From: Candidatus Odinarchaeota archaeon
GTDB taxonomy: Archaea; Asgardarchaeota; Odinarchaeia; Odinarchaeales; Odinarchaeaceae
Assembly: GCA_038826135.1 (NCBI GenBank)
Contig: JAWBON010000071.1
Location: 1 to 6,101, forward strand
Length of the DNA: 6,101 nucleotides
Direction: 5' to 3'
Shown here: piece by piece, positions 1,250 to 6,101 of the stretch
How positions within the stretch are numbered: the stretch's first letter is position 1
Layout: each line of letters begins with the position of its first letter
Program-made: the position numbers and the translations under genes
The notes under the pieces: generated by a model
Told to the model about the DNA's origin: nothing
Databases searched by the model: none
What the model saw: only the letters and a program-made list of their open reading frames with translations

Positions 1250-1334
1250 TAATAACCCTCAATAGCTTGTGTAAACACTTGTATAAAAATGGTTAAATGT
1301 TTTATTGATAAACTTATTGTAAGGGTGGTTGAAC
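1250..1334. promoter_or_regulatory. Divergent promoter region shared by the radical SAM gene and the hypothetical gene
   Basis: AT-rich gap between two divergent starts. TATA-like candidates are TTTTTATA (minus, 1289-1282) and the inverted repeat TTTAT-TG-ATAAA (1301-1312), which reads TTTATTGA on + and TTTATCAA on -. SD-like motifs are GAGGG (minus, 1260-1256) and AAGGGTG (+, 1321-1327). Confidence 0.5.
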
Positions 1335-1619
1335 GTGTCTAAGAGAATGATTTTCAGGTTTGAGGGTGATTTTAAACCTCGCATAGGAGATGTTATATCG
1401 GTTGTTGAATGGAGGCTTGTTAGAGAGGGATTACCTTTAGAAGCTTTAAAAATAGAGGATTCGCTTCATAAACAGGTTTTCATAAGCCGCACTGGAGGTA
1501 TTGAAATGCTAAACCCTGTTAATAAGGCTAATATAAAAGGTAGGGTAATCGGCTTCAAAGAAAAATATAATGTTAAGACTCAAACTCCTATAATATTATT
1601 CGAGGTTGAAACTGAATAG
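1335..1619 (+). CDS. Small hypothetical protein (~94 aa), predicted beta-rich
   Basis: The ORF fills the gap between two clear genes and ends at TAG 1617-1619, 6 bp from the lhr stop. The SD-like AAGGGTG lies 7 nt before GTG 1335, which fits better than the track's TTG 1329 (1 nt spacing); ATG 1347 is another option. Composition is protein-like, with alternating beta-strand patterns (MIFRFEG, PRIGDVISVVE, IKGRVIGF, IILFEVE). No family recognised. Confidence 0.8.
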   Translation: MSKRMIFRFEGDFKPRIGDVISVVEWRLVREGLPLEALKIEDSLHKQVFISRTGGIEMLNPVNKANIKGRVIGFKEKYNVKTQTPIILFEVETE

Positions 1620-1625
1620 GTTCCT

Positions 1626-4505
1626 TTAATCCCAGAAACCTCTTGTTTCAATATATTTTTTCTCAGTTCGTAAAATTTCTAGCAGTATATCGTGTTCTGT
1701 TAAATTCGTTTTTGAAAAAATTCTTTTCACGCTCTGAGGCCCCACCCCTCTGCCAGCTAAAGCCATTATCGCTCTCTTACCCATTGTTAAAATCAGGCTG
1801 CCTGTTCCCTGCAGTTTTTTTAACGCTTGTAGCTCTGCTTTATCTAATTTTTGACCTGACCTCCATTTTTTAACTAGACGGTAGGATTCATTATCATTAG
1901 GATATGTGGCAGCGAGGTATCCGGAGCCGCAAACCATGCATTTAGGATACTCTTCTAAGGATCCCACTGTCCTCGTAGTCTCAAATTTACCACAGTAAAG
2001 ACATATAAGTTTTTTACTGGTGGATTCCAGTCTTTTTTTAAGCACGCTCAGAATCTCCGCTACCGGTCTCTCAGGGGCTACTAAGTCTCTGACACCTAGA
2101 TTGTCTAATGCTATACTCGTGAATTCTCCAAGCCGGCTTTTTCCTTTGGAGGGGCTTATCTGCACCTCTATTTCTTTTGAAATGATTTTTTTAAATATGT
2201 CTGAGGTTTTTTTTAAATCAAGTTTTTCTAAAAGTATTTCTCTGATAGTCTCCTCCGCTACCACAGGGTCTTCGTATTTAATCAATCTTTTTATATCAGT
2301 TGGACTGTAATCAGCGTCTTTTTCAATAAGCCCGAATCTCTTAGCAACGTAAACATATTTCCAGTTAAAAAGCGCGGTCTGTTTTAAAGTTATCTCTAAC
2401 AGCGACTTTAAATGCTCTGTGTTAACCTCGTAAAAAATGTTTTTAATAATATTGGGGTTAACACGCGCTGCGTTTTGGATTGTAATCCGGTAGGGGTCTG
2501 ATTTAATCATTATACTCTCACCGTATCGGCTTAGTAATAAAGCGGCTAGCACTTGAGCTATTGTTTGATTAACCTTACTACCGTAGCAGAGGTGAATTAT
2601 TATTAAATTATCAACGGATTCTATGAGGATGTTTCGCTCACCATTATAAGGCTCCTTATTATCAACGTAGAATTTAACGCTTTCATATAATTTTCGCGCA
2701 GCACTCTCCTTTATTACTATGTTATCTAACTCAGCTTTACCTATCAGCAGTGAATGTTTAATTATTTCAATTATATCCGTTGCATTAGGATTAGAGAGAT
2801 CATTATATAGTTTATCTCTCAGTGAGGCAACCATCCTAGCAATACTGTATGGAACCGGTAATAATTCCCCCTCCCAGGAGGGGACGGCGGCTGTAGGTGT
2901 GGGGACCGGTTCAACTCTTATCGCATCTTCATCCACTGATATAATGCGCCATGCTTGGCCTTTAGCTATAAAAACATCGCCAACTTCATTATTGACCACA
3001 AACTCTTCGTCAAGTCTACCTATCTTACTGTTAGCTGAGATATCAACCACATCATATTGTTTAACGTCAGGTATCATTGAAAGATTTGAGTAATAATATT
3101 GGAGGGTTCTCTGGCTTCTTTTAACCACACCGCCATTTACGTAAACTATTTTCTGCTTATTCATATACTCGACTATTCTTTGAATAGTGTCAATAGGTAT
3201 TTGACGATACGGGTATGCTTTACGTATAATATTGTATAATAATTCGAATTCTATTTTACCGTTCTCCAGTGTTATTCCAGCTATTTGGTGGCATAATACG
3301 TCTAAACTGTTTTCATGTAATATTATATGCTCAATTTTATGTTTCATCGTTGATTTACATATGGAAACAGTTTCGAGAATATCATCCGCGTTTACTGTTA
3401 TAATATAGCCTTCTGAGGGTTTTTCGAGTTTATGTCCCGCTCTGCCTATGCGCTGAATTAGTTTAGATACTTGTCTGGGTGACATGAACTGGATAACAAG
3501 GTCTATGCTTCCTATATCTATTCCAAGCTCAAGAGAAGAAGTACAGATTATGCATTTAATTATCTCATCTTTAAACTTTGATTCAGCTTCAAGTCTAACC
3601 TCTTTGGAAAGAGAGCTGTGGTGAACTGCAAAATTAAAACTAGGATTGTAATTAGCAAGCTTGGAAGCGATTATTTCCGCAGCCTCTCTAGTATTAGTGA
3701 ATACAAGGACTGATTTATGCTCTTGAATAAGCTTGTCAATTAACCTGATTACCCTAGCGATTTTAGGTGTGGATTTTATCTCTGCAGCTAGTTTATAGTC
3801 TTCTTCCGAGGGATCCGCGTAGTCCAGATGGATAATAAATCTTTTACCTCCACCTAAATACATTATTTTAACTTTTTCATCGCTGCCGGCTAGGAATTTA
3901 GCAATTTTCGAAGCGTTTCCGATAGTTGCTGAGAGCCCTATTCGCTGAAATCTTTTACCTGTAAGATAGGCGAGTCTTTCAAGCCCTACTGATAACTGGG
4001 AGCCTCTCTCATCGTTTGCAAGTTCATGTATTTCGTCTACAATAACCCATCTTACAGATTTAAGATGCTCTCTCATCTTTTTACCCGGCAGTATTGCTTG
4101 CAGGGTTTCTGGGGTGAGTATGAGAATATCCGGGGGGCTGACCGCTTGCCTGCGTCTGGTAAGCTGTGTAGTGTCACCGTGGCGTACTTCAACACGTATA
4201 TCTAAGCTTTCACCTAATTTTATGAGTCTTTTTAATATATCCCTATTGAGGGCTTTTAAAGGTGTTATATACAGTGCTTTTATACCCGGAGCATTAGCTT
4301 TCTCCTTCTTCAAGTGAAGTATATTGCTTAATATTGGAAATACAGCCGCCTCTGTCTTACCAGAACCGGTCGGAGCCGCTATTAGTATATTATAGCCTTT
4401 AAGGATTCTAGGTATCGCTTTCTCCTGAGTGATTGTCGGTGTCTTAAATCCGAAAAACTCCAATTTCTCTCTAAGAATATTATCTAATTCATCGAAAATA
4501 TTCAA
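1626..4505 (-). CDS. lhr: ATP-dependent Lhr-family SF2 (DExH) helicase with C-terminal Zn ribbon (959 aa)
   Basis: Motifs seen: Q motif GFKTPTITQ, Walker A APTGSGKT (4376-4353), Ia YITPLKAL, TPETL, Walker B DEIH, III SAT, IV VFTNTR, HHSSLS, V TSSLELGID and VI QRIGRAGH. Lhr-specific features are the winged-helix 'LDVLCHQI', the domain-4 signature 'VPSWEGE', and 'FVYVAKRFG'-like 'YVYVAKRFG'. TTG start at 4505 has an SD GAGGGG 6 nt upstream and an in-frame TAA just before it. TAA stop at 1628-1626. Confidence 0.96.
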   Translation of the reverse strand: MNIFDELDNILREKLEFFGFKTPTITQEKAIPRILKGYNILIAAPTGSGKTEAAVFPILSNILHLKKEKANAPGIKALYITPLKALNRDILKRLIKLGESLDIRVEVRHGDTTQLTRRRQAVSPPDILILTPETLQAILPGKKMREHLKSVRWVIVDEIHELANDERGSQLSVGLERLAYLTGKRFQRIGLSATIGNASKIAKFLAGSDEKVKIMYLGGGKRFIIHLDYADPSEEDYKLAAEIKSTPKIARVIRLIDKLIQEHKSVLVFTNTREAAEIIASKLANYNPSFNFAVHHSSLSKEVRLEAESKFKDEIIKCIICTSSLELGIDIGSIDLVIQFMSPRQVSKLIQRIGRAGHKLEKPSEGYIITVNADDILETVSICKSTMKHKIEHIILHENSLDVLCHQIAGITLENGKIEFELLYNIIRKAYPYRQIPIDTIQRIVEYMNKQKIVYVNGGVVKRSQRTLQYYYSNLSMIPDVKQYDVVDISANSKIGRLDEEFVVNNEVGDVFIAKGQAWRIISVDEDAIRVEPVPTPTAAVPSWEGELLPVPYSIARMVASLRDKLYNDLSNPNATDIIEIIKHSLLIGKAELDNIVIKESAARKLYESVKFYVDNKEPYNGERNILIESVDNLIIIHLCYGSKVNQTIAQVLAALLLSRYGESIMIKSDPYRITIQNAARVNPNIIKNIFYEVNTEHLKSLLEITLKQTALFNWKYVYVAKRFGLIEKDADYSPTDIKRLIKYEDPVVAEETIREILLEKLDLKKTSDIFKKIISKEIEVQISPSKGKSRLGEFTSIALDNLGVRDLVAPERPVAEILSVLKKRLESTSKKLICLYCGKFETTRTVGSLEEYPKCMVCGSGYLAATYPNDNESYRLVKKWRSGQKLDKAELQALKKLQGTGSLILTMGKRAIMALAGRGVGPQSVKRIFSKTNLTEHDILLEILRTEKKYIETRGFWD

Positions 4506-4550
4506 AATCAGCCCCTCTTAGGCGGAAAAGTTTATTGAATATAACACTCG

Positions 4551-4564
4551 GTTTTAAATTTCAA
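4551..4564 (-). promoter_or_regulatory. Putative BRE-TATA promoter of lhr
   Basis: The minus strand reads TTGAAA-TTTAAAAC (TATA-like 4558-4551). This puts a start site near 4530, leaving a ~25-nt leader that contains the GAGGGG SD. Based on motif and position only. Confidence 0.45.
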
Positions 4565-4592
4565 TACTTTTTAACATTTTATTATAAGACGG

Positions 4593-4613
4593 TTATTAAC
4601 AATATGTTATTAT
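4593..4613. promoter_or_regulatory. Palindromic operator-like site TAAC-N5-GTTA (HSR1/Phr-type)
   Basis: The sequence is TTATTAAC-AATAT-GTTATTAT, with core TAAC 4597-4600 and GTTA 4606-4609. The core matches the recalled A. fulgidus HSR1 site CTAAC-N5-GTTAG and the AnnnAC-N5-GTnA core of the recalled P. furiosus Phr consensus. A Phr-like gene lies ~160 bp away. Confidence 0.4.
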
Positions 4614-4724
4614 TATCCAATTATGGAGTCTACTGGTGATGTTTATTAACTTTTCTAAAGTATGTTTTCTTTAACGGTTAAATTTATAATTATAGTTCTG
4701 GTTTATAATCGCAGATTTCAACAT

Positions 4725-4750
4725 AAGAAACTTGTCAGTTACGTGAACTG
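4725..4750 (-). terminator. Possible terminator of the cdc48-phr transcript
   Basis: A 5-bp inverted repeat CAGTT-N5-AACTG (4736-4750) starts 20 nt after the regulator stop and is followed on the minus strand by ACAAGTTTCTT. The stem and U-tract are both weak. Confidence 0.25.
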
Positions 4751-4769
4751 GAGATTTACAGGAAGCGGA

Positions 4770-5480
4770 TTATAGTGTGTAATAGTCTTTTTCCTCTTTG
4801 ACTTTTTTTTCTTTTATCAGATTATATTTTTTAGCCAGTTCTAAAAGCTGGTCTAATTTGTTTTTCGAAATCTTATGGTACTCTAACAGATCTAGGACAT
4901 CCACTTCTCCACCGAGTTCTATAAGTGATCTTACAAGTGCAGCTAAGGATATATCTAAGTTCTCTGAGGGAAAGAATTTATCTATCTCCTCGAATATTCT
5001 GTCCCTTAATTTTAGAAGACTGCATTGGAAAGCTTCTAGTTCTTTGAGTTTACTTTCTGTTTTATTCAACAAGTTTAGGATTTTGCTAATAGTGTTTTCA
5101 TCCTCTTTAAAAAAAGCTATTTTATTGAATTCTTCTAAGGTGTCTTTTAAATAATCGGCTGTAGCCTCTATTTTATCAGGTAATTCCGCCATTTTAATAC
5201 TGAAGCAGCGTGGTGAAAGACTTATGTTTAAGTGGAGTCCTCTCTTTATTTTATAGTATATTCTTGAGGGTCCGTGGGGGCTTTTCTTAATGACTTTTTC
5301 AACTAAACCTGTCTCCTCTAATATGGTTAAATTCTGTATAATGGCTCTCGGTGTTAGGTTGAGTTTGGTTGCTAGGCTGAACGGGTAGTCTTCACCTTGA
5401 CTTAACAGGAAAAGTATCTTTCTCCTTGTGTCACTGCCTAGAGCGTACGCTAGTTTGTCTATGTCTATTTCTTCCCCCAT
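4770..5480 (-). CDS. Phr/HSR1-like heat-shock transcriptional regulator (ArsR-type wHTH, COG1777-like; 236 aa)
   Basis: The N-terminus MGEE...LGSDTRRKILFLL...ILEETGLVE...G.SRIYYKIKRGLHLNISLSPRCF aligns residue by residue with P. furiosus Phr as I recall it (MGEE...LGNETRRRILFLL...ILEEAGLIE...GRPRKYYMIKKGLRLEILLTPTLF). An amphipathic coiled coil follows. SD GAGGGTG lies 6 nt before the ATG. The gene is adjacent to cdc48, the known context of HSR1/Phr regulons. Confidence 0.88.
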   Translation of the reverse strand: MGEEIDIDKLAYALGSDTRRKILFLLSQGEDYPFSLATKLNLTPRAIIQNLTILEETGLVEKVIKKSPHGPSRIYYKIKRGLHLNISLSPRCFSIKMAELPDKIEATADYLKDTLEEFNKIAFFKEDENTISKILNLLNKTESKLKELEAFQCSLLKLRDRIFEEIDKFFPSENLDISLAALVRSLIELGGEVDVLDLLEYHKISKNKLDQLLELAKKYNLIKEKKVKEEKDYYTL

Positions 5481-5506
5481 TTTTTACACCCTCGTAATTT
5501 AAAATA

Positions 5507-6101
5507 TTAAATAGTGTGGCGTTTAGCGAACTCCTCGTAAATTTTCTCCTGATGTTCTATACGCGTCTTTGGTATAGGCCCTATCTTCTTTAAAGCTTCT
5601 TTTAGATGTTTAGCCTCAAGTTTCAGGCTCTCAATGTCTTTCTCCTCTTCTTTACCCTGATGCTTGTCAAGGTATTCTTTAATTGTGTTCATAACTGCTT
5701 CATTGCAGACTGCAGCTATCTCCGCGCCTGAGAAGTTTTCTGTCTCTTTTGCTAATTCATCTATATTAACGTCTTTCGCTAAAGGTTTGTTTCGTAAGTG
5801 CACTTGGAATATTTTCTTTCTCGTAGCCTCATCTGGTAGGGGCACGTATATTAGCCTGTCGAATCTGCCGGCTCTGAGAAGCGCAGGGTCTATTATGTCT
5901 GGTCTGTTTGAAGCTGCGATGACTGTTACACCTTTAAGCTCCTCTAATCCGTCTAGTTCAGTTAGCAGTTGGCTTATAATTCTTTCAGTTGTATGCGCGT
6001 CCCCTATTGTTGAGCCCCTGGCTGGTGTTATAGAGTCGAGTTCATCGAAGAATATTATTCACGGTGCAGCCTGTCTTGCTTTTCTGCATGTTTCTCGAAC
6101 C
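5507..6101 (-). CDS. cdc48: Cdc48/p97/VAT-family AAA+ ATPase, D2 domain and C-terminus (5'-truncated), with an in-frame TGA at 6061-6059
   Basis: Manual translation from 6100 gives [97 protein letters not shown]...FSGAEIAAVCNEA...KRHTI. This includes Walker B (IIFFDE), SQLLTELDG, the sensor-1 Asn, the Arg-finger region and the AAA lid. The track's 5845 'start' is an internal GTG (Val). Whether the gene is intact, recoded or a pseudogene is unresolved. Confidence 0.93.

Follow-up and report, generated by a model that had tools for sequence, protein, structure and literature searches.

An in-frame TGA in the contig-terminal cdc48 gene piece of an Odinarchaeum-like genome is very probably a consensus error

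With high confidence, the TGA codon that interrupts the cdc48 gene piece of the Odinarchaeum-like genome GCA_038826135.1 can be attributed to a consensus error at a contig end, in an otherwise ordinary Cdc48 gene. Although the codon is part of the deposited consensus, the organism itself very probably lacks it; the codon is almost certainly not a real feature and represents nothing novel. The gene is to be annotated as an intact Cdc48 gene that is cut by the contig end, and neither as a pseudogene nor as a selenoprotein gene. More generally, where a TGA replaces a Cys codon less than about 50 nt from a contig end and another odd codon is close by, an error should be presumed unless the TGA recurs in another assembly.

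The cdc48 gene piece and its two odd codons

The window, i.e., the whole stretch of 6,101 nt that was analyzed, is one complete contig (C71) of a metagenome-assembled genome (MAG; GCA_038826135.1, here G000; 1.26 Mb, 105 contigs, 93% complete). Position 6101 is the contig end, and the in-frame TGA therefore lies only 40 nt from it. The best named homologue of the cdc48 product is CDC48 of Ca. Odinarchaeum yellowstonii, and thus the MAG is Odinarchaeum-like and belongs to the Asgard archaea. Its DNA was found in hot-spring sequencing runs. The features that are relevant for the analysis are compiled in Table 1.

Table 1. Coordinates of features in the window
Feature	Position	Strand	Remarks
ArsR-type HTH regulator, 236 aa	4770..5480	-	PF01022; starts 26 nt after the cdc48 stop
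Weak GUGA...AA hairpin, rejected as SECIS	5402..5434	-	inside the regulator coding sequence
Cdc48/VAT AAA+ ATPase gene, last 198 codons including the stop	5507..6100	-	Pfam AAA, AAA_lid_3
TGA codon, private to the window contig	6059..6061	-	true codon very probably TGC (Cys552); presumed wrong base 6059, + strand T for G
Second private change, TGC (Cys) for TTC (Phe543)	6086..6088	-	presumed wrong base 6087, 15 nt before the contig end

The gene piece comprises the second half of the D2 domain, the lid, the C-terminus, and a TAA stop codon, and the gene continues past the contig end. The first-pass annotation had described the TGA as in frame and colinear, with 183 sense codons after it, and this was confirmed in the deposited consensus. 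The sense codons between the TGA and the TAA at 5509-5507 match Pfam AAA and AAA_lid_3. The identification as Cdc48, the alignment with Cys572 of human p97, and the heat-shock context were likewise borne out, by TIGR01243, by a gap-free alignment, and by the gene order, respectively. A full-length protein of the same species (P0121, 735 aa) scored 1074 bits against the TIGR01243 CDC48 model, for which the cut-off is 803 bits, and it contains CDC48_N, CDC48_2, and two AAA domains, which places it in the Cdc48/VAT family. The TGA corresponds to residue 552 of the full-length protein, and in a gap-free alignment this residue falls on Cys572 of human p97 (alignment anchor: residue 520 of the query and residue 540 of p97). 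At this position, 115 of the 121 homologues have a Cys. The same-species protein is thus like archaeal Cdc48/VAT and eukaryotic p97/VCP, as it exceeds the family cut-off and has the Cys at p97 D2 position 572; unlike a complete Cdc48/VAT gene, the window contig carries the last 198 codons only.

A second odd codon had also been noted. It is a TGC (Cys) that is private to the contig, at a position that is occupied by Phe in all homologues checked (121/121). The two odd codons are 27 nt apart, and both are situated inside the last 43 nt of the contig. The Thr in VRET, another residue that had looked odd, is genuine for the genus. The protein collection has just one 112-aa product from the window contig. 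Two further full-length Cdc48 paralogues are encoded in G000, on contigs C55 and C42.

Other assemblies, sequencing runs, and private bases

Comparison with close relatives had been set beforehand as a check of the TGA, and the result was uniform: a TGC was found in three further contigs (L024, L025, and L026), in three congeners (G001-G003), and in two sequencing runs (X1 and X2). The closest contig (L026, from GCA_038851285.1) has an identity of 99.2% over the entire 6.1-kb window, and its 735-aa cdc48 gene is intact, with TTC at 6088-6086 and TGC at 6061-6059. The contigs L024 (ENA) and L025 (JGI) are 92–93% identical to the window. Their last 57 nt are the same as those of the window save for positions 6059 and 6087, so that TTC and TGC occupy the two odd-codon sites and the Cdc48 frame is intact; the two contigs share every difference over the compared stretch and were counted as one lineage. 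The congeners G001-G003 have TGC at the TGA site and intact Cdc48 frames. An exact DNA pattern search of JGI metagenome contigs yielded no match and was uninformative.

The evidence from sequencing runs consists of Logan contigs, which drop rare variants, and a minority allele could escape them. In run X2, contig 10 spans 5817-6101 and reaches 224 nt beyond the window end; it has three differences, and the plus strand has a G at 6059 (TGC). Run X1 is probably the source sample or contains the same strain, because its contigs match the window without any difference along 2.3 kb close to the site (3769-5861 and 5832-6026). The accession of the source sample is probably SRR27730047. It has a break at 6027-6052, and the contig over 6053-6101 shows two differences, one of which is a G at 6059. 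This piece across the TGA site is only 49 nt long and has an odd strand label, and a predicted partial product of the terminal X1 contig is not on record; the X2 contig is the firmer witness. Position 6087 is absent from the listed differences for runs X1 and X2. The depths of the run contigs X1 and X2 at the locus are only 5-8. In runs X4 and X5, the contigs of the window organism end at 6052 and at 5818, respectively, leaving the site uncovered. The short pieces from these two runs over 6024-6086, with 4-9 differences, belong to Cdc48 genes of other organisms and were left out.

The contig end coincides with a gap in the assembly. In both sister loci, L024 and L026, the distance between the position that corresponds to the end of G000 contig C7 (30443) and window position 6101 is 3,634 bp, and thus the window contig stops at an assembly gap. 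In L024 and L026 this stretch contains the remainder of an acyl-CoA synthetase/acetyltransferase gene, followed by hsp20 and the 5' part of cdc48. Neither the hsp20 gene nor the first three quarters (5') of cdc48 were found in G000.

Next, the bases that are private to the window were analyzed, defined as positions at which L026 and L024 agree against the window (base 3045 was judged against L024). The window has 11 private bases, two of which are located within 50 nt of the contig end (P = 0.004 under a uniform distribution, for a span that was chosen post hoc). Both terminal private bases are disruptive, one being a nonsense change and one a Phe to Cys change at an invariant site. Of the seven other coding private bases, six are synonymous and one leads to an Asn/Thr difference. 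The real strain differences in the window are mostly silent, and the two terminal changes are not.

Taken together, both changes are private to the contig end, the gap exists, and the depth is low. We propose that the organism encodes an ordinary 735-aa Cdc48 with N, D1, and D2 domains and a Cys (TGC) at the site, within an Hsp20-Cdc48-Phr-like cluster. In the MAG, the assembly breaks off within cdc48 at a spot of low coverage, with about 3.6 kb missing upstream, and two of the last 43 bases are very probably wrong calls, namely 6059, which makes the TGA, and 6087, which changes Phe to Cys. Miscalled bases are typical where one or very few short-read tails extend a contig, and such read tails may well be the origin of the two calls. 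The pattern resembles low-coverage contig-end errors of short-read metagenomes in its clustered private substitutions, the depth of 5-8, the adjoining gap, and the normal bases elsewhere. The first-pass annotation had rated an error or a recent mutation as at least as likely as recoding, and the results support the error.

In the case of a mutation, a minor subpopulation would carry a real nonsense allele (TGA instead of TGC), either rare or of very recent origin, which happened to be caught at the contig end, and the protein would end immediately before the Walker B motif of D2. A single substitution is enough to generate the allele, the two paralogues on C55 and C42 might make the loss tolerable, and a minority variant is compatible with the contig data. 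However, the allele would have to coincide with another private change, 27 nt away and at an invariant Phe, and both changes would have to fall within 43 nt of the contig end. In addition, the remaining cdc48 codons in the window show no decay, with one other private base, which is synonymous, and run X1, which is identical to the window nearby, reads TGC. A nonsense allele is therefore considered to be very unlikely. It is highly improbable that the UGA serves a minor subpopulation as a regulated switch of the heat-shock cluster, by readthrough or by production of a D1-only Cdc48.

Selenocysteine machinery, SECIS elements, and stop codon usage

The first-pass annotation had raised the idea of a selenocysteine (Sec)-containing or readthrough-controlled Cdc48, i.e., of a UGA that is recoded or read through to yield a Sec-containing or switchable protein. 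Like in Asgard selenoproteins, the UGA of the window is aligned to a Cys of the homologues (115 of 121). Other Asgard classes use Sec, and an Asgard survey reports Sec use in four subdivisions, while other clades appear to be without Sec (PMC11227280). In contrast to Asgard selenoproteins, the UGA is not conserved within the species, which has TGC, and the host lacks the Sec machinery. No Sec in Odinarchaeia is recorded in either published survey (PMC9723677; PMC11227280); according to the first, no tRNA-Sec occurs in Odinarchaeia and Sec recoding was lost there (PMC9723677). The second counts seven Asgard selenoprotein families; among them are SelD, FrhA/VhuU, HdrA, FrhD/VhuD, and Prx-like proteins, the families named there are redox enzymes, and Cdc48 is not mentioned in the main text (PMC11227280). 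The Cys of Cdc48, in contrast, is not a redox site.

A search for the Sec machinery had also been set beforehand as a check, and it was run alike on G000, the three congeners, and Sec-using Asgard controls, which scored clearly. SepSecS, SelD, SelB, PSTK, and tRNA-Sec were not found in G000 (93% complete) or in G001-G003 (93–98% complete). The best SepSecS scores were 72-75 bits in the genus versus 376-412 bits in nine genomes of the phylum, and the best SelD scores were at most 82 bits versus 152-250 bits in the controls, in which the genes contain an internal TGA. For SelB, 155-157 bits were obtained versus 289-306 bits in the controls, and the match is EF-1alpha; for PSTK, the values were 43-45 versus 145-192 bits, and the match is APS-kinase-like. 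The best tRNA-Sec scores of 41-42 bits were below the cut-off of 47 bits, versus 60-63 bits in the controls, and the G000 match turned out to be tRNA-Ser(GCT). The result was the same for G002, a congener with a single contig and a completeness of 98%, as for G000. VhuD/MvhD, a common Asgard selenoprotein family, had no match in G000 or G002.

One match to the SepSecS Pfam model in G000 exceeded the cut-off, but it is SepCysS (Sep-tRNA:Cys-tRNA synthase) that cross-matches the model. SepCysS itself is encoded at G000:C60:4772-5506 and is over its own cut-off, suggesting that cysteine is made in a tRNA-dependent manner. In a genome of the same order, a match to the tRNA-Sec model of 50.3 bits, just over the cut-off, was observed at a contig end (G005:C43:4-89), and that genome has no true SepSecS; the match could represent either an orphan tRNA-Sec or a tRNA-Ser/Leu with a long arm. 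In a Sec-using Asgard genome (G011:C1:553189-554101), selD is present in two frames that are one base apart, with a TGA in the first piece, and this could be explained by a frameshift error, by a small intron, or by a genuine split of the gene.

The lack of a convincing SECIS element, which had been noted before, also held. A first strict pattern, which was run without a control, gave no match. With a looser scan, which recovered AUGA_GA hairpins at four of the six control loci, no conserved SECIS was found 3' of cdc48, and also in the lack of an AUGA_GA element the gene is unlike Asgard selenoprotein genes. An Rfam scan of 4300-6101 yielded a chance match only; as Rfam was also blank on six true selenoprotein loci, this result carries no weight. 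A weak GUGA_AA hairpin that follows the cdc48 stop at a distance of about 70 nt could be taken to favor recoding. However, one match versus 0.17-0.5 expected from shuffled sequences is at chance level, and the motif is not conserved, as GUGA is replaced by GCGA in three congeners. With TGC in the close relatives and the Sec machinery not found, the idea of a Sec-containing or readthrough-controlled Cdc48 had to be abandoned; recoding or readthrough is extremely improbable, and Sec at the site is effectively excluded.

The assumption that UGA is a normal stop codon and is not globally reassigned proved to be correct. The stop-free frames of at least 200 codons in G000 (n = 795) end with TAA in 447, with TAG in 177, and with TGA in 171 cases. 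Because TGA ends 171 of these 795 long frames, UGA is a normal stop in G000, which argues against a global reassignment. The stop might instead reside in a tRNA-type (BHB) intron of the mRNA, but the region around the TGA has no insertion and aligns base for base with the intact genes of L026, L024, and L025. That the TGA is due to such an intron or to reassignment is vanishingly improbable.

Gene neighborhood of cdc48

In the closer loci, the gene order is Hsp20, Cdc48 (735 aa), an ArsR/Phr-like HTH regulator, an Lhr helicase, a small ORF, a radical SAM protein, and an MFS protein. The gene upstream of cdc48 in these loci exceeds the archaeal Hsp20 cut-off, and the order of cdc48 and the regulator gene is the same in all congeners. 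The heat-shock regulon of Phr in Pyrococcus furiosus and HSR1 in Archaeoglobus fulgidus includes Hsp20 and CDC48 (PMC5852551). Similarly, the genes for Hsp20, Cdc48, and the Phr-like HTH regulator lie next to each other with the same orientation in every Odinarchaeum locus seen. The nearest family of the regulator is the Phr heat-shock regulator (NF053602), but unlike Phr, the Odinarchaeum regulator is below the Phr cut-off (78 versus 320 bits). By its gene content, the Odinarchaeum cluster matches the Phr/HSR1-Hsp20-CDC48 heat-shock set.

Two further observations were made in this region. A small ORF of 94-96 aa (1329-1619, plus strand) lies between the radical SAM and the Lhr genes; it was also called in L024 and L026, and it has no Pfam match. 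In L026 (GCA_038851285.1), 20 nt are missing near position 7050, in the Walker A region of the Lhr helicase gene (window positions 4344-4363). The gene was called in two pieces in L026 and is intact in the window and in L024, and the loss is probably an assembly error or a private deletion.
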